From a virus (taxonomy: Duplodnaviria; Heunggongvirae; Uroviricota; Caudoviricetes), in the IMG/VR virus record IMGVR_UViG_2531839233_000017: 10,353 bases of DNA, one strand, 5' to 3'. Below the pieces are notes generated by a model. It saw nothing but the letters and a program-made list of their open reading frames with translations. It had not been told where the DNA came from and made no database searches. Shown here in pieces: positions 759-10,353 of the stretch. Position 1 is the stretch's first letter, and each line of letters opens with the position of its first letter. The translations under genes and the position numbers were made by a program.

Positions 759-763
759 TCAAC

Positions 764-787
764 AGCCGGAGAAATCCGGCTTTTTTT
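764..787 (+). terminator. Rho-independent terminator after the PerC-like gene
   Basis: Hairpin AGCCGGAG-AAAT-CCGGCT followed by a run of seven T, directly after the stop at 758. Confidence 0.6.
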
Positions 788-882: not shown

Positions 883-1107
883 ATGCCGATGAAATTTGAT
901 GAGATATTAAAACAGCGTGATAAATACCATGCTGACAACATGGAGACGATGAGCATCAATGATTACCGCGCATTCCTGGAGACGGGCGCACTGATTGAAA
1001 AGGATCAGCATGGTTTTGTGAGATGTGCTCTGTCCGGTGAAATGCTGGCGGTAAATCCTGAACAGATAGATGCATTGATAGAATTTCTGAAAGGGATCAG
1101 GGACTGA
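883..1107 (+). CDS. hypothetical protein (74 aa)
   Basis: ATG at 883 preceded by GAGGAAAAAACA (AGAGGA Shine-Dalgarno). Sequence MPMKFDEILKQRDKYHADNMETMSINDYRAFLETGALIEKDQHGF… has no motif I recognise. The track ORF from 805 has no RBS. Confidence 0.5.
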   Translation: MPMKFDEILKQRDKYHADNMETMSINDYRAFLETGALIEKDQHGFVRCALSGEMLAVNPEQIDALIEFLKGIRD

Positions 1108-1117
1108 GCACGCATAC

Positions 1118-1140
1118 AGCCGGAGCAATCCGGCTTTTTG
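1118..1140 (+). terminator. Rho-independent terminator after the 74-aa gene (near-duplicate of 764-787)
   Basis: Hairpin AGCCGGAG-CAAT-CCGGCT followed by TTTTTG. Stem is identical to the terminator at 764-787. Confidence 0.6.
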
Positions 1141-1156
1141 TCATTTTTTGTAAATT

Positions 1157-1187
1157 ATTTGTTCGTGGTTGTTCCACGTTGTTCACT
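1157..1187 (+). promoter_or_regulatory. Three helically phased TTGTTC hexamers (10-bp register) upstream of the capsid operon; candidate operator or activator site, possibly overlapping a weak sigma70 promoter
   Basis: TTGTTC at 1159, 1169 and 1179 (TTGTTCGTGG TTGTTCCACG TTGTTCACTG). The 15-mer TTGTTCCACGTTGTT recurs at 8754-8768. A possible -35 TTGTTC (1179-1184) and -10 TATTTT (1201-1206) sit 16 bp apart. Confidence 0.4.
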
Positions 1188-1261
1188 GACAGGATCGGCA
1201 TATTTTACCCGAACTGAATCATGAGTATTCTCGCCCGTGGTGCCAGGACGCTGGGGCCACT

Positions 1262-1307
1262 TTCCCGCCTGTTAATGTGCTCGCCAATATTCATTACCAG
1301 GCGGGAA
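1262..1307 (+). promoter_or_regulatory. Long inverted repeat in the capsid-operon leader (10 to 11-bp perfect stem, about 26-nt loop)
   Basis: TTCCCGCCTG (1262-1271) is the exact reverse complement of CAGGCGGGAA (1298-1307); flanking T1261/A1308 extend the stem to 11 bp. Confidence 0.4.
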
Positions 1308-1361
1308 AACGATCGGTGCGATTGCTGATTTCCTTATGAAAAACGGTTGAGTTTTTGCCGC

Positions 1362-1399
1362 GTCCTGGAGTTCCTTACTTAACCCCAGGACTTTTTTTT
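1362..1399 (+). promoter_or_regulatory. Terminator-like hairpin plus T8 immediately before the capsid start codon; its 3' arm contains the only Shine-Dalgarno-like sequence
   Basis: GTCCTGG (1362-1368) pairs with CCAGGAC (1385-1391) across a 16-nt loop, followed by TTTTTTTT (1392-1399) and then ATG at 1400. AGGA at 1387-1390 lies inside the stem, 9 nt from the ATG. Confidence 0.45.
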
Positions 1400-2557
1400 A
1401 TGCCGAGAATAATCGAATTACGCCAGCAGAAAACCGCCATTAAAAATCAGATGCGCGACATGCTGGAGAACGCGGAAAAAGAAAACCGCAGCCTTAACGA
1501 TGCAGAGGGCGCAAAATTTGACGAATTACGCGCTAAAGCTGAATCCCTCGATAAAGACATTTCCCGCCTTGAAGCCATTGCAGACGAAGAGCGCAGCAAG
1601 CCAGGTAAAAGCAGCCAGACCACTGACCCGGCAGAACTCCGCAACTACATCCTGACAGGTGAAACCCGCGCATTAAGTACAGGCGTTCCCGCTGATGGTG
1701 GTTATACCGTTATCCCCGAACTGAACACCGAAATCATGCGAATGCTGACGGATGAATCCACCATGCGCCGCATCTGTACCGTGAAGAAAATCAGCAGCAA
1801 CGAGTTTAAGCAGCTTGTTTCCGCTGGCGGTGCGACCGTTAACCACGGTGAAGAGGGTAAGACACGCGAACAGACCAGCACCCCGCAGATTAACGAGGTG
1901 AGCATTAAGCTGTATCCGGTCTATGCGTACCCGCGCACCACACAGGAAATCGTGGATTTTTCCGATGTGGACATCCTTTCATGGCTGACGGGTGAGATTG
2001 GCGACACCTTCACGGAAACCGAAGAAAGCGATCTGGTTGTGGGCGACGGTGACAAAAAAGCAAAAGGTTTTTTATCCGTACCCCGTGCAGAGAAGAACGA
2101 CAAAGAGCGTGATTTTGGTACGTTGCAGGTAATTAAACCTTCCGAATCTCTGGCGTGGACATCTGCGGACCCGCTGATCGACCTGAAATTTGCATTACGT
2201 AAAAAATACCGCAAAAACGCGGTCTGGGTGGTTAACTCCACGACGGCGGCAAAACTTCAGAAGGTGAAGAACGCGAACGGTGATTACATCTGGCGCGACC
2301 GTTTACAGGCGGGTGATCCTGATACGTTGCTGGGCCTTCCGGTCGAATATCTGGAGTTTATGCCTGATAACGTTATTGCCCTGGGTGACTTCAAACGCGG
2401 TTACTACATTGTTGATCACGAAACAGGTGTTCGCACCAGACCGGACAACCTCACAGAGCCGGGTTTCATCAAAATTTTCACGCAGAAATATTTAGGCGGT
2501 GGCGTGGTGGATTCGAACGCGATCAAGATTCTGGAACTGCCACAGGACGACGATTAA
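1400..2557 (+). CDS. Major capsid protein, HK97 fold, with N-terminal coiled-coil delta/scaffolding domain
   Basis: 385-aa ORF. The N-terminus ELRQQKTAIKNQMRDMLENAEKENRSLNDAEGAKFDELRAKAESLDKDISRLEAIADEE is a typical HK97-family delta domain; the remainder has the usual HK97-family capsid length and composition. ATG 1400 is preferred over the track's TTG 1355 because it sits after the leader hairpin and gives a canonical N-terminus. Confidence 0.9.
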   Translation: MPRIIELRQQKTAIKNQMRDMLENAEKENRSLNDAEGAKFDELRAKAESLDKDISRLEAIADEERSKPGKSSQTTDPAELRNYILTGETRALSTGVPADGGYTVIPELNTEIMRMLTDESTMRRICTVKKISSNEFKQLVSAGGATVNHGEEGKTREQTSTPQINEVSIKLYPVYAYPRTTQEIVDFSDVDILSWLTGEIGDTFTETEESDLVVGDGDKKAKGFLSVPRAEKNDKERDFGTLQVIKPSESLAWTSADPLIDLKFALRKKYRKNAVWVVNSTTAAKLQKVKNANGDYIWRDRLQAGDPDTLLGLPVEYLEFMPDNVIALGDFKRGYYIVDHETGVRTRPDNLTEPGFIKIFTQKYLGGGVVDSNAIKILELPQDDD

Positions 2558-2567
2558 CAGCATACAG

Positions 2568-2596
2568 AAGGGGCTTAAAAGCCCCTTTAGTGTTTT
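2568..2596 (+). terminator. Intrinsic terminator or attenuator between the capsid and protease genes
   Basis: Hairpin AAGGGGC-TTAAAA-GCCCCTT (2568-2587) followed by TAGTGTTTT. Confidence 0.5.
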
Positions 2597-8036: not shown

Positions 8037-8455
8037 CTGGTTGATATTTTCGAAATTCGCCAGCGGCGAACATCGGGGAAACCAGCCTAACCCGTTGATT
8101 CTTTCGGAAACAGCCATTGGCGGAATCCGGCGCGGTAACTTGCTGATATTCCCGATAACGCAAAATTGCGTGGCTGAATGAACATTATGATTACTTATGA
8201 TTACGCAGATGATTAAGGCCTAAACCGTTGATTCTTCCCAATTTCCACAGACTGTGGAAGTTGGCGCGGTAACTTACTGAGATTAAAGCAAAGCGCAAAA
8301 TTGCGCCGACTACATCCCTCACATGCGAAATTTTCGCAGTTTAATTACTCGCCAGTTTGATCGTTAACCCGCTGATATTTTCGGGAACCTCAATTTGAGG
8401 AAGTCGGCGCGGTAACTGGTTGATACTTTCGACCTCCTCAATTTGAGGAGGTCGG
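8027..8455. repeat. Array of four composite repeat units: 22-bp direct repeat GGCGCGGTAACT-NNN-TGATATT, each followed 4 to 9 bp later by a different palindrome, with a second direct repeat CCGTTGATTCTT about 37 bp upstream of three of them
   Basis: Core copies at 8029-8048, 8129-8150, 8263-8284 and 8405-8426. Palindromes at 8056-8070 (TTCGCC-AGC-GGCGAA), 8158-8171 (ACGCAA-AA-TTGCGT), 8293-8308 (GCGCAA-AA-TTGCGC) and 8430-8454 (CGACCTCCTCAA-T-TTGAGGAGGTCG). Second motif at 8092-8103, 8225-8236 and variant 8369-8383. Confidence 0.8.
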
Positions 8456-8743
8456 GGCACAGAAAAACAACGAATATGTTGTTTTTGGGAATGGTCATAA
8501 TGACCACGCAGACCATCAAGGCAACCACAACGAACATCGTTACGGTTGGAGCTTTTACCCCACTGGGGGAAAGGTATTACGATAATCATAACACCTACCG
8601 AACAGGTAAAACCCACCAGCCTGATTAACAGTTAACCGGAAAAAAAATCCGGTAGCCCCGTTATGGGGATCCCCATATCGACATTAACGCCCCTCATGAA
8701 TTGGTGCGCTTCCCCCTGGAAAGATTACCCGCCTGTATATTTC

Positions 8744-8769
8744 TTGTGTCTATTTGTTCCACGTTGTTT
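8744..8769 (+). promoter_or_regulatory. Second set of three helically phased TTGT(T/G)(C/T) hexamers, sharing a 15-mer with the capsid-operon upstream site
   Basis: TTGTGT at 8744, TTGTTC at 8754, TTGTTT at 8764 (10-bp register). TTGTTCCACGTTGTT at 8754-8768 is identical to 1169-1183. Confidence 0.4.
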
Positions 8770-8786
8770 CATACAGTGCACCGAAC

Positions 8787-8810
8787 GGTGTAGTTAATGG
8801 TGTAGTCAAT
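8787..8810 (+). repeat. Tandem 12-bp direct repeat (GGTGTAGTTAAT / GGTGTAGTCAAT)
   Basis: Two adjacent 12-mers differing at one position, about 85 bp from the phoQ stop. Confidence 0.5.
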
Positions 8811-8892
8811 TTGCTGTTTTTAGCACTTTTTGCAGTGTGGGTTGTTTAATTAAATCAATGGGTTGCCTTGCTGTGGTGATAAAAGGACATAT

Positions 8893-10353
8893 TTATTCAT
8901 CTTTCGGCGTAGAATGCTGGCGACCAAAAATCACCTCCATCCGCGCACCGCCAAGCATGCTCTCTCCGGCGACGATTTTACCCTCATATTGCTTGGTGAT
9001 TTCGCGGGCTACCGCCAGCCCCACACCTTGCCCAGGGCGTAAAGTATCAACCCGTTGACCACGGTCGAAAATGACCTCTCGCTTGCTTAATGGAATACCG
9101 GGGCCATCATCCTCGACCACAATATAGAGATGCTCGTCGGTTTGCCTTGCAGAAATTTCGACAAACTCGAGGCAATATTTACAGGCATTATCCAGTACAT
9201 TGCCCATCACCTCGACAAAATCGTTCTGCTCACCGACAAAGCTGATCTCTGGCGAAATATCGAGAGAGATATTGACCCCTTTGCGTTGATACACTTTGTT
9301 CAGCGCCGAGGTGAGATTGTCCAGCAGTGGGGCGACCGGATGCAGCTCGCGGCTGAGCAATGTCCCGCCGTGCATACTGGCACGATGCAGGTAGTAGCCA
9401 ATTTGCTGTGAAATGCGGCTGATTTGCTCCAGCATTACCGGTTCAGCATCACTGACGCTCATCTTTTCACTACGTAGAGAACGCAGCGTACTTTGCAGCA
9501 CCGCCAGTGGCGTTTTCAGACTATGGGTCAGGTCGGTGAGCGTTGTACGATATTTGTCGTAACGTTCGCGTTCACTTTTTAACAATCGGTTCAGGTTTCG
9601 TACCAGACTGGTCAGTTCTCGCGTTGTGGCTGGATTGAGCAATTCGCGGTTATGTTCTTCCAGTTCGCGGACTTCTTTTGCCAGGGCTTCGATGGGGCGT
9701 AAACTCCACCAGGCGGCGACCCACAGCAGCGGGATCACTAACAGCAGATTGGCTGAGAGCACATAGATAAACCAGCTCCAGACCATATAGGAACTTTTTA
9801 GCTCCACCGGAATGGTATCCACCACCACAATGGTTAACTTTGGCATCCGCGATGTTGCCGGGTAGACGTTTACCGCCACCGAGTGGGTCATCTCCGCGTC
9901 GTCATCATCTTCCCGCACTTCCTGCAACTGTTGCTGTATCGAATGATCTCCACTCAGCAAGAGGCTGGTATCGTTAACATCCGCTTCAATTTCATGAAAA
10001 CCATTCGATTTCAGCCAGTCAGGCTGGATCATCTTCATCAGCCAGGGCACGTCACGTTGCGCCCATAAAAGCTGCCCGTTCTCATCATAAATTAGCGTCA
10101 TGGTGGGGCTTTGCTTGTCGATATTTTCGGGTAACTCGACATGCAACTTATTGTTTTCCCACTTCGCAAGGGTATAGAACAGATTGCTCTCGCCACGTAA
10201 CAGCCGAAACGTAGTTTTATCGAAACTGACGCTATAACCGATCAGCGCGACCATTCCGTAGGCAAGCGAAAGCACCAGTACTACCGCTGCCGTTGCCAAC
10301 AGAAAACGTACCCGCAGCGAGAGCGGGAAAAAAAGACGCAGTAATTTTTTCAT
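8893..10353 (-). CDS. phoQ: Sensor histidine kinase PhoQ of the PhoPQ two-component system
   Basis: 486-aa ORF, full length. [33 protein letters not shown]…, periplasmic acidic patch [12 protein letters not shown]-box [16 protein letters not shown]-binding G-boxes DDGPGIP and GQGVGLAVA. Matches E. coli PhoQ from memory. The start codon is at the very end of the window. Confidence 0.97.

Follow-up and report, generated by a model that had tools for sequence, protein, structure and literature searches.

A structured RNA leader with two predicted exclusive folds precedes the capsid gene of the satellite EcCIEDL933 and most of its relatives

Attenuators such as those of trp and pyrBI, the RAT elements of bgl/sacB and the riboswitch platforms are built on a layout of four segments that form mutually exclusive folds. 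Hairpins over the ribosome-binding site (RBS) are found in the phage Mu mom/Com system and in the rpoS leader, where they are opened by a factor acting in trans. In IS10 and IS50 the RBS itself is bound by a strand from further upstream, and "fold-back inhibition" of outside transcription has reportedly been observed for these elements. In the lambda PR'-tR' system (6S RNA) with Q, and in HK022 put, a terminator of the late operon is overcome before the structural genes.

The leader analyzed here precedes the capsid gene of a phage satellite and contains three predicted hairpins, H1, H2 and H3 (Table 1). It shares the four-segment layout with exclusive folds of the attenuators and, as in these, H1 would act as an anti-antiterminator, holding the strand directed against the 5' arm of the terminator in front of the first gene, with a U-tract following. 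It differs from them in that no conserved leader peptide and no ligand or protein aptamer was found, H2 is variable, the 3' arm of the terminator doubles as the Shine-Dalgarno sequence (SD), and most members of the family have no U-tract. As in IS10 and IS50, the RNA of a mobile element would fold against read-in, depending (here by prediction) on the sequence at or 5' of its own start, but in this leader the 5' hairpin would govern an anti-sequestor, which is one extra layer, and a terminator is present in one lineage. As in mom/Com and rpoS, a late or conditional gene would be silenced by an RBS hairpin, whereas the competitor here is a strand in cis. A putative late promoter with a terminator-like structure within about 200 nt is shared with PR'-tR' and put; in contrast to these, the putative terminator and the first gene's RBS overlap here, and covariation favors an alternative RNA-RNA helix over modification of the polymerase.

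The stretch of DNA analyzed (the window, 10,353 nucleotides) was identified as EcCIEDL933 of E. coli O157:H7, with a DNA match of 100%, inserted between roxA on one side and phoQ on the other. This element was named the prototype capsid-forming PICI in the cf-PICI paper; cf-PICIs are recently recognized, widespread phage satellites able to make capsids of their own. Its genes are arranged in the order int, alpA-type HTH, primase, ssb, PerC and packaging genes. The gene upstream of the leader encodes a 74-aa protein (phrog_1957) with no Pfam or NCBIfam match, for which a homologue search returned near-identical E. coli proteins only, and the terminator of this gene is nearly a duplicate of another one located at 763-787. 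A terminator-like hairpin (2567-2588) is also found 3' of the capsid gene.

Table 1. Features of the capsid leader region of EcCIEDL933, in window coordinates.
Feature	Position	Strand	Basis
Intrinsic terminator after the 74-aa gene; stem 1118-1135 and T-run	1117..1141	+	Terminator scan
Conserved TTTTGTAAATTATT motif, then three TTGTTC in 10-bp phase (1159, 1169, 1179)	1145..1184	+	Sequence
-10-like hexamer TATTCT, no recognizable -35	1226..1231	+	Sequence comparison
H1, 5'-terminal hairpin, GACG loop, predicted -13.4 kcal/mol	1237..1260	+	RNA folding, covariation
Element A, CCAGGACGC, candidate antiterminator/anti-sequestor strand inside H1	1243..1251	+	Repeat search, shuffle test
H2, long clamp hairpin, 11 perfect pairs and a 5-pair extension, predicted -23.3 kcal/mol	1261..1308	+	Folding, repeat search
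Linker with weak hairpin (1311-1330), poorly conserved, heavily diverged in L094	1309..1359	+	Comparison
Element B, GCGTCCTGG, 5' arm of H3; putative partner C (off) or A (on)	1360..1368	+	Repeat search, folding
H3, RBS-occluding hairpin and terminator-like stem, predicted -12.7 kcal/mol	1362..1391	+	Folding, repeat search
Element C, 3' arm of H3, carries the SD AGGA (1387-1390)	1385..1391	+	Sequence, folding
U8 tract, abutting H3 and AUG	1392..1399	+	Sequence, comparison
Major capsid gene (HK97 fold, Pfam PF05065), first in the packaging operon	1400..2557	+	PGAP, Pfam, homologue alignment

A first-pass annotation of this DNA had described a highly structured capsid leader with a hairpin at 1237-1260, an inverted repeat at 1262-1307 and a GC stem followed by T8, and all of these were recovered with coordinates within one base. 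The RNA between 1230 and 1410 folded with a predicted energy of -69.9 kcal/mol, which none of 200 dinucleotide shuffles equalled (-49.0 ± 3.7 kcal/mol; z = -5.65), and the leader type carried by the majority of the related satellites gave z = -4.70. The outer stem of H1 consists of the pairs G1237-C1260, U1238-A1259, G1239-C1258, G1240-C1257 and U1241.G1256, and the inner stem, CCAG/CUGG, encloses the loop. In H2, positions 1261-1271 pair perfectly with 1298-1308 around an interior of 26 nt, and in the repeat search the arms reached 17 nt with a complementarity of 94%. H3 is formed by GTCCTGG (1362-1368) and CCAGGAC (1385-1391), with an inner stem GTT/AAC. The annotated burial of the SD inside a stem with terminator anatomy was borne out, since the SD was unpaired at equilibrium with a predicted probability below 0.03. 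No base separates the T8 run from the ATG (1400-1402), and the window as a whole has just one further T8 run. H3 and the U8 tract thus have the form of an intrinsic terminator, a G+C-rich hairpin with a gapless U-tract; the simple terminator scan did not list it because it accepts loops of up to 8 nt and does not count interrupted stems, and the loop and interior of H3 are larger than usual.

Comparison with approximately 115 related satellites showed a conserved family of structured leaders, which precede the capsid gene in most cf-PICIs. Across 31 distinct leaders, 96.9% of the cells were paired, and the covariation that the annotation had proposed to look for was found: both sides had changed in 11 pairs, including compensatory changes in all eight modelled pairs of H2, a hairpin whose sequence and apical part vary among leaders. 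This combination of pairing and covariation was reached by none of 500 shuffles, and slid controls were 39-49% paired. Compensatory changes were seen in three H1 pairs within the majority type, and in none of the H3 pairs, where the 31 leaders were invariant or carried one-sided G.U changes. The only conserved parts of the leader are the strands of H1, H3 and the long-range helix described below. L094, a variant of the window type, is only 72% identical overall and yet retains H1 and H2 together with the stem of H3 and a T-run; its linker and H3 loop have been rewritten, while A, B, the C arms and T8 are intact.

The strand on which this structure acts was considered next to two other uses of the same DNA: a DNA-level element (a packaging site, a replication-type origin or palindromes bound by a protein), or a longer capsid protein initiated at TTG 1355, an upstream start that the annotation had weighed against its own choice of the capsid ATG. 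The inverted repeats fold on both strands (z = -4.62 for the minus strand), phased repeats lie close by, and the window has an open TTG-1355 frame. The arms of H2, however, change sequence fully and yet stay paired, which suits a protein recognition site poorly, and each of the four polymorphisms that E. coli copies show in the stems is a C>U facing G, hence G.U-compatible on the plus strand only; together with the U-tract and the orientation of the gene, they point to an RNA read from the plus strand. From the gene order, a cos site would be expected beside HNH/terS. As for the start codon, TTG 1355 is rejected in favor of ATG 1400: T7 in place of T8 breaks the TTG frame in 10 of the 12 window-type variants, the loop "codons" of L094 are all non-synonymous, and ATG 1400, which is also the PGAP call, aligns with Met1 of all homologous capsids. 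The explanation by either of these two uses is regarded as extremely improbable.

The window leader is linked to the majority type by its 5' half. A covariance model built from majority leaders (R1) matched 1237-1338, that is H1 and H2, with 18.2 bits and E of about 1e-5 in an unfiltered search of 401 nt (default filters gave no match), and the shared features are a GTGG/GCCAC outer stem, the GACG loop and a long H2 directly after it. H1 of the window is homologous to that of the majority leaders, with both sides changed in three of the four inner pairs. The 3' half is different: no such linker is present in the majority type, where a C-rich spacer takes its place, and the majority H3 form, GGTTTC-A-CGT...ACGGAAACC near the ATG, was not matched by the window, whose H3 has another sequence, lies about 50 nt further from H2 and carries the added U-tract. 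By sequence, then, the two H3 hairpins are analogous and not alignable. The majority H3 pairs a GGA at -12, and the RBS or the AUG is also paired in the L050, L046 and Gilliamella leaders, whereas about 8% of the relatives have an unstructured leader of 35 nt.

No description of this leader family was found in the cf-PICI literature open to search, and searches of Rfam with the window leader (E <= 10) and with four further leader types gave no hit, nor was there one at the gathering score. Among 50,697 phage records the window leader had no match and the majority leader only three, the best of them in a record of 16.5 kb. No conserved ligand-binding aptamer as in a riboswitch was detected, the apex of H2 being variable, and likewise no leader peptide, protein, tRNA or ligand was recognized that would serve as a defined sensor, with neither a conserved small ORF nor an aptamer-like core in the leaders. 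CsrA, nut/boxB and ops motifs were dropped, as by eye they are not shared between leader types.

The U-tract has a narrow distribution. T7 or T8 is present in all 12 E. coli/Shigella variants, L094 included, and no T-run was found in majority-type or other leader types, so that most relatives have only the hairpin hiding the RBS. On these sequences, the terminator form is restricted to the E. coli/Shigella lineage, and RBS occlusion, rather than antitermination, is the mechanism that the family as a whole would share. The absence of the U-tract from most members and the unstructured leaders of some relatives indicate that the module is dispensable. The same distribution bears on the proposal that a terminated leader of about 1237-1399 is a trans-acting sRNA bound by Hfq or by a ProQ/FinO protein, with control of the capsid as a secondary effect. 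The terminator hairpin with its U8 is what such an sRNA would have, and in a related E. coli cf-PICI a gene for a ProQ/FinO-family protein is located two genes upstream. However, no discrete sRNA would be expected from the members without a U-tract, complementarity elsewhere in the island amounts to chance-level 9- to 12-mers, for which trans-acting antisense within the island was also rejected, and no record of an sRNA or of antitermination at this locus was found in the literature. This proposal is considered quite improbable.

The element that would make the leader a switch, beyond a mere block, is a helix between its two ends, which the annotation had not noticed. An unguided repeat search showed that A and B are 100% complementary over 9 nt, and it also returned A as a duplicate of C, identical over 7 nt (CCAGGAC). 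Since A is complementary to B and is a copy of C, the combination of H1 and H3 (off) and the long-range helix (on) are mutually exclusive. A is unchanged in every window-type variant, and both A and B are invariant in L094. In the majority type, 98.4% of the cells of the equivalent helix are paired, and one of its pairs, 15-119, changed from UA to GC in three sequences of one lineage (L079, L091 and L171). Column 15 also covaries with column 10 within H1, giving a three-way covariation, and column 119 is a bulge of H3, so its change is explained only by the long-range helix.

The complementarity between the 5' domain and the RBS domain gave shuffle p-values of 0.005 in the window, 0.027 in the majority type, 0.002 in the L046 type and 0.09 in the L050 type, values that are individually modest and refer to regions picked after viewing the sequences. 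In the L050 and L046 leaders the 5' domain pairs with the RBS region directly, a different wiring, and the Gilliamella-type leaders follow the same competing logic with CAGATATG / CATATCT / CAGATATG. A pattern scan of IMG/VR for additional covariation in this helix gave mostly identical H1 and B sequences and chance matches. The evolutionary support for a helix of the A:B type, which consists of one compensatory event in one lineage and of the analogy between families, is moderate, because that event is the single independent one.

The predicted energies describe how the two folds would compete. In transcripts with their 3' end at 1368-1384, the A:B helix was part of the minimum free energy (MFE) structure, and from a 3' end of at least 1391 the MFE structure was H1 with H3, the majority type behaving alike. 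In the full leader at equilibrium, the probability of the on helix was about 0, and when this state was enforced a weak local hairpin kept part of the SD paired. The off fold is therefore the predicted thermodynamic default. It is probably the kinetic default as well. The direct-path barrier from H1 to A:B was predicted to be high, about 14 kcal/mol, and a leader whose H1 is neither shortened nor opened would be slow to switch by itself.

These energies would also agree with a static leader that does not switch, in which H1 shields the long operon mRNA against decay that depends on its 5' end, H2 is neutral, H3 damps translation initiation and the U-run serves as a U-rich spacer or S1-binding enhancer instead of a terminator. 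Stabilizing stem-loops at the 5' end of mRNAs are established for leaders of the ompA type, among 82 distinct upstream sequences there are 60 that place H1 at the predicted 5' end, as a stabilizing hairpin would be, H1 with H3 is the sole state populated at equilibrium, and most relatives lack the U-tract. A static leader nevertheless leaves unexplained the perfect 9-nt complementarity of A and B together with the A=C duplicate, the covariation between the H3 bulge and H1, the repetition of the competing-helix logic in unrelated leaders, and the conservation of A, B and the T-run amid the divergence of L094. It is judged unlikely for these reasons.

Upstream of the leader, the TTTTGTAAATTATT-type motif with phased repeats precedes the capsid gene at most cf-PICI loci, and it is presumed from sequence to be the activator-binding region of the promoter of the packaging operon. 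The 60 upstream sequences mentioned above have a -10-like hexamer (variants TATCTT, TATGTT, TATATT and TATTCT) that ends 5 nt 5' of the first base of H1. Because of the position of this hexamer in the window, the start of transcription is predicted at about 1237-1240. Relatives with the short leader retain the same promoter motifs. Two candidate leader peptides were rejected: the ORF from ATG 1221, which would run across H1 and allow attenuation, begins 5' of the conserved -10 and at a position where relatives have CAG, GAT, AAT or TAG, and the mini-ORF at 1336 is missing from L094, so neither ATG is conserved.

The location of H1 and H2 directly after the predicted start, as two stem-loops 0-3 nt apart, recalls the put RNA of HK022, and by this analogy the pair would bind RNA polymerase in cis and allow it to read through H3/U8 and the hairpin at 2567-2588. 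The presence of terminator-like sites downstream and the near invariance of H1 among elements whose capsids are only 65-75% identical would fit such an activity. On the other hand, the sequence and apex of H2 are not conserved, the complementarity and covariation of A and B would be superfluous, and the conservation of H1 is already explained by its pairing with several partners. The likeness extends to the two-hairpin layout, and no similarity to described families was found in Rfam. A put-type RNA is regarded as quite improbable.

The position of the 5' end had a large effect in the predictions. In read-in transcripts the off fold was favored by 4-11 kcal/mol, whereas in transcripts with a 5' end 3-5 nt within H1 the on fold was equal or favored, so that the balance between off and on would move by up to about 10 kcal/mol. 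The annotation had argued that termination and blocked translation would persist unless something remodels the RNA; on the modelled energies, a scheme without any remodelling factor, in which the 5' end decides the fold, would be equally good.

Taken as a whole, the leader is proposed to keep the packaging operon off by default, as an attenuator and a translational lock with two exclusive folds, a reading to which we give a probability of roughly 60% on the sequences and models described. In the off fold, H1, the clamp H2 and H3 would coexist, with A held sequestered in H1 and the SD buried by H3, and in the E. coli/Shigella lineage H3 and U7-8 would have the form of an intrinsic terminator that reaches up to the start codon. 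In the on fold, the H1 segment CCAGGACGC would pair with the 5' arm of H3 (GCGUCCUGG), so that the terminator would be blocked and the strand with the SD freed. The leader would in this way silence the packaging operon, most strongly on transcripts that enter from the variable cargo genes on its 5' side. Release may be achieved in either of two ways, namely (a) by a transcript that begins a few bases into H1, as would be expected from firing of the putative dedicated promoter 5 nt upstream, or (b) by an RNA-binding factor or chaperone that acts in trans and opens H1. The 74-aa protein is a candidate for such a factor, although its association with structured leaders is partial. Of the alternatives named by the annotation, antitermination or RNA-switch control, the switch is favored by a conserved competing helix with a compensatory change and by the recurrence of its logic, while antitermination across the family does not hold, the U-tract being confined to E. 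coli/Shigella.

A broader proposal, about which we are doubtful, is that these leaders constitute a new class of satellite riboregulator. They might be factor-free sensors of transcript origin, such that only RNAs starting inside H1 at the late promoter would adopt the on helix, or switches operated by an RNA chaperone encoded in the PerC / ProQ-FinO / phrog_1957 slot of the island. Such a regulator would time the synthesis of the capsid and insulate it from constitutive defence cargo, and it would have evolved several times at this locus.

No description of how the packaging operon is switched on was found in the cf-PICI literature that could be searched, and the leader provides a concrete, mutable handle on this step. 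The RNA family, with its covariance model, could aid the annotation of such satellites, and in cf-PICI particles engineered for delivery the yield of capsids probably depends on this leader. It also suggests how the packaging operon of these satellites stays silent beside cargo that is variable and expressed.

The window matched E. coli O157:H7 chromosomes with 100% identity, and the annotated copy is an island of ~15 kb flanked by roxA and phoQ. Its genes run from an integrase, a small HTH regulator, a DUF927 primase, ssb, a PerC-family gene and a 74-aa gene to those for capsid, prohead protease, portal, head closure, connector, HNH, small terminase and large terminase. The island is EcCIEDL933, described in the cf-PICI paper as the prototype capsid-forming phage-inducible chromosomal island. 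The minus-strand ORF 8893-10353 is host phoQ, which places the right end of the island within 8037-8892. The region studied was the 165 nt from the terminator 3' of the 74-aa gene to the capsid ATG. The cf-PICI and PICI literature, so far as it is searchable, does not mention a promoter, terminator or leader of the packaging operon. The leader itself is undescribed; its kind of regulator is well known.

The three leader structures claimed in the first-pass annotation, hairpins H1, H2 and H3 with its T8 tract, were all present (table below), and the only Shine-Dalgarno-like (SD) sequence, AGGA, was confirmed inside the terminal stem. The fold energy of the leader RNA was -69.9 kcal/mol, compared with -49.0 +/- 3.7 kcal/mol in shuffled sequences (z = -5.65). 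Judged by the usual criteria (GC-rich stem, eight U, no spacer), H3 and T8 have the anatomy of a terminator; H3 escaped a consensus terminator scan because of the scan's loop limit. The annotated ATG is the capsid start and aligned with Met1 of homologous capsids. The upstream TTG-1355, named earlier as the start that would refute the proposal, was rejected, as T7 instead of T8 breaks its frame in 10 of 12 natural variants.

Features of the capsid leader and its surroundings (window positions)
Feature	Position	Strand	Description
Terminator module	763-787		closes PerC gene; CAGCCGGAG[A/C]AATCCGGCTTTTT
74-aa gene (phrog_1957)	883-1107		no Pfam or NCBIfam match; sole small gene recurring directly upstream of structured leaders
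Terminator module	1117-1141		closes 74-aa gene; nearly identical to 763-787
Conserved motif and repeats	1145-1184		TTTTGTAAATTATT, then three TTGTTC in exact 10-bp phase
-10-like hexamer	1226-1231	+	TATTCT in window; TATCTT, TATGTT or TATATT in most others
H1	1237-1260	+	five-pair outer stem; CCAG/CUGG inner stem; GACG loop; -13.4 kcal/mol predicted
Element A	1243-1251		CCAGGACGC; H1 5' arm and loop
H2	1261-1308	+	11 perfect pairs; 17-nt arms of 94% complementarity in repeat search; -23.3 kcal/mol predicted
Direct repeat	1327-1336 and 1368-1377		GATTTCCTTA / GAGTTCCTTA
Element B	1360-1368		GCGTCCTGG; H3 5' arm plus two bases
H3	1362-1368 with 1385-1391	+	GTCCTGG with CCAGGAC; inner three-pair stem; -12.7 kcal/mol predicted
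AGGA (SD)	1387-1390	+	inside H3 3' arm
T8	1392-1399	+	directly 3' of H3, abuts ATG
Capsid start ATG	1400		annotated start
Terminator-like hairpin	2567-2588		9-bp stem, T-rich tail; between capsid and protease genes

A capsid protein search retrieved five species-level relatives and 80 IMG/VR contigs, and further loci came from a DNA-pattern scan, the sample amounting to about 115 distinct capsid-upstream regions. The window type was found in E. coli and Shigella (360 of 5,426 complete E. coli genomes), and the commonest leader, or majority type, in IMG/VR contigs and in genomes of Rosenbergiella, Citrobacter, Erwinia psidii and E. coli. Two minor types (L050 and L046) and a separate Gilliamella type were also distinguished. 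About 8% of loci keep the same promoter motifs and carry a ~35-nt unstructured leader, and therefore the structured leader is an optional module; in the short-leader loci L042, L043, L045, L047, L049, L051 and L053 the predicted structure was 0 to -0.2 kcal/mol. The L050/L052 leader has a terminator-like site in its middle, formed by the central hairpin and a U7 tract after it; its 5' end is paired directly to the SD region (GGUUCCUG with CAGGAGCC), and TTG is the apparent start codon of the capsid gene. No Rfam family was matched by any leader type. Among phage records, the window type had no match and the majority type only three, the best being a 16.5-kb record and none a true phage.

The covariation check across homologous leaders was positive for H1 and H2. 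In an alignment of 31 distinct majority-type leaders, standard pairs filled 96.9% of the cells of H1, H2 and H3, with two-sided changes in 11 pairs; none of 500 shuffles matched these values, and slid partners were 39-49% paired. All eight modelled pairs of H2 covaried, its arms varying among GGCCGTTTAA, GTCCACCCGG, GCCGCCTGAC and GCCCGCCCCG, each with its own complement, and its apical part being wholly different. Three pairs covaried in H1. H1 of the window shares its GTGG/GCCAC outer stem and GACG loop with the majority type, and three of the four inner pairs differ on both sides. The majority-leader covariance model matched 1237-1338 (H1 and H2) with 18.2 bits when filters were off, and nothing in the window under default filters. 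H3 was invariant or showed one-sided G.U changes in these leaders, so covariation is neutral on it. The E. coli copies differed at four stem positions (1260, 1264, 1383 and 1385), each time by C>U opposite G, which is tolerated only in plus-strand RNA. Inverted repeats necessarily fold on both strands, and good folding was indeed seen for the minus strand (z = -4.62); the strand was therefore assigned from these polymorphisms, the U-tract and gene orientation. The same polymorphisms, and the changes of the H2 arms with pairing kept, exclude a DNA-level role of the repeats. A put-like polymerase-modifying RNA would fit the two-hairpin layout, but it is at odds with the variable H2 and would not need the long-range pairing described below, and is very improbable.

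Element A was perfectly complementary to element B, and its first seven bases were identical to the H3 3' arm; a repeat search found both relations unprompted. The complementarity had been overlooked in the first-pass annotation. Because A is also part of H1, the H1+H3 fold (OFF) and the A:B helix (ON) are mutually exclusive, and A:B pairing would block the terminator and free the SD strand. When transcripts of increasing length were folded, those ending at 1368-1384 had A:B, in a form lengthened to 12 pairs, in the minimum free energy fold, which became H1+H3 from 1391 (-59.5 vs -55.3 kcal/mol), a prediction that gives the classic attenuator picture. The majority type showed the same folding behaviour, with an equivalent helix (AGACGUGAG-CCG with CUGG-UUCACGUCU) that was 98.4% paired in the 31 leaders. 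In L079, L091 and L171, the H1 pair A10-U15 was replaced by C-G, and A119, the long-range partner of U15, by C. As A119 is an unpaired bulge of H3, its change is explained only by the long-range helix; this covariation support, from one evolutionary event, is real but thin.

Independent support for the competing helix came from three further comparisons. The longest helix between the 5' and RBS domains gave, against dinucleotide shuffles, p = 0.005 (window), 0.027 (majority), 0.002 (L046) and 0.09 (L050), with a Fisher combination of about 3e-5 for regions picked after sequence inspection. Gilliamella-type leaders carry CAGATATG in the 5' hairpin, CATATCT mid-leader and CAGATATG again at the start codon. 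In the L094 leader (72% identical), linker and H3 loop were rewritten, with A, B, the arms of C (the H3 3' arm) and T8 intact. As a side observation, the UUCCUUA core of the direct repeat resembles the 16S rRNA 3' end and is able to pair weakly with the SD when A:B is enforced.

At equilibrium, the full leader was predicted to be essentially all H1+H3, with an SD unpaired probability < 0.03. H1 is transcribed about 100 nt ahead of B, and the direct path from H1 to A:B has a predicted barrier of about 14 kcal/mol. Taken together, these values point to a default OFF state, which in the models is the thermodynamic default and probably the kinetic one too. A static leader, acting by 5' hairpin stabilisation and damped initiation with no switching, would account for this equilibrium fold and for the fixed position of H1; it is nevertheless unlikely, since it leaves the A:B complementarity, its covariation and its recurrence unexplained.

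Two routes of release from OFF fit the data, the position of the 5' end or a trans factor. Of 82 distinct upstream sequences, 60 had a -10-like hexamer ending exactly 5 nt before H1 begins, which predicts a transcription start at 1237-1240. Read-in transcripts, whose 5' end lies upstream, were predicted to prefer OFF by 4-11 kcal/mol. For transcripts beginning 3-5 nt inside H1, the prediction at the decision point was an advantage of about 10 kcal/mol for A:B; the barrier decreased to about 9 kcal/mol and the two states of the complete leader were iso-energetic. The effect was seen in both the window and the majority type. The leader would then let through only transcripts from its own promoter, a filter of the kind known from IS10 and IS50. 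Such a filter would fit the location of the leader, downstream of what a 2025 preprint describes as a variable region where immune systems are expected. Alternatively, a trans factor would act on the leader. Of the 59 loci with long flanks, 36 carried the phrog_1957 gene, and the short-leader loci all lacked it; the 74-aa protein is a candidate regulator with partial association. In one related E. coli cf-PICI with a majority-type leader (L216, E. coli EC416, NZ_AP027404.1), a ProQ/FinO-family RNA-chaperone gene (1690-2232) occupies the PerC slot of EcCIEDL933. Neither association is proof of a trans factor.

Further upstream of the hexamer, nearly all cf-PICIs, short-leader ones included, have a conserved TTTGTAAAT motif with phased repeats, the latter often nTTACC. 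No -35 was visible, and the region therefore looks like a putative activator-dependent late promoter. Most majority-type elements carry a terminator hairpin and T-run (e.g., CCCCTGTCTCTGACGGGGGTTTTCTTT) between the phased repeats and the hexamer, and thus inside the presumed promoter (for example in L003, 2640-2700 of the locus). In the window, three successive terminator-like sites separate the capsid gene from the early genes, namely the modules closing the PerC and 74-aa genes and H3/U8. The hairpin after the capsid gene could set the capsid-to-downstream-protein ratio, the capsid gene being first in the operon.

Only leaders of the E. coli/Shigella type had the U-tract, as T7 or T8 in 12 of 12 variants. 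The majority type has ACTCC-ATG directly 3' of H3 and a pyrimidine-rich unpaired spacer 5' of it. The absence of the U-tract elsewhere suggests that the family-wide function is RBS occlusion, to which EcCIEDL933 appears to have added intrinsic termination. As a speculation, the C-rich spacer of the majority type may serve for Rho loading on untranslated RNA. An improbable further role of the terminated leader, in the E. coli lineage only, would be that of a trans-acting sRNA. Of the antitermination or RNA-switch control proposed earlier, the switch is partly supported, as an RNA-level gate with switch anatomy, termination is reduced to a lineage-specific addition, and the link to helper-phage timing is a hypothesis. 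The gate would lie at the head of the key packaging operon of a topical class of satellites.
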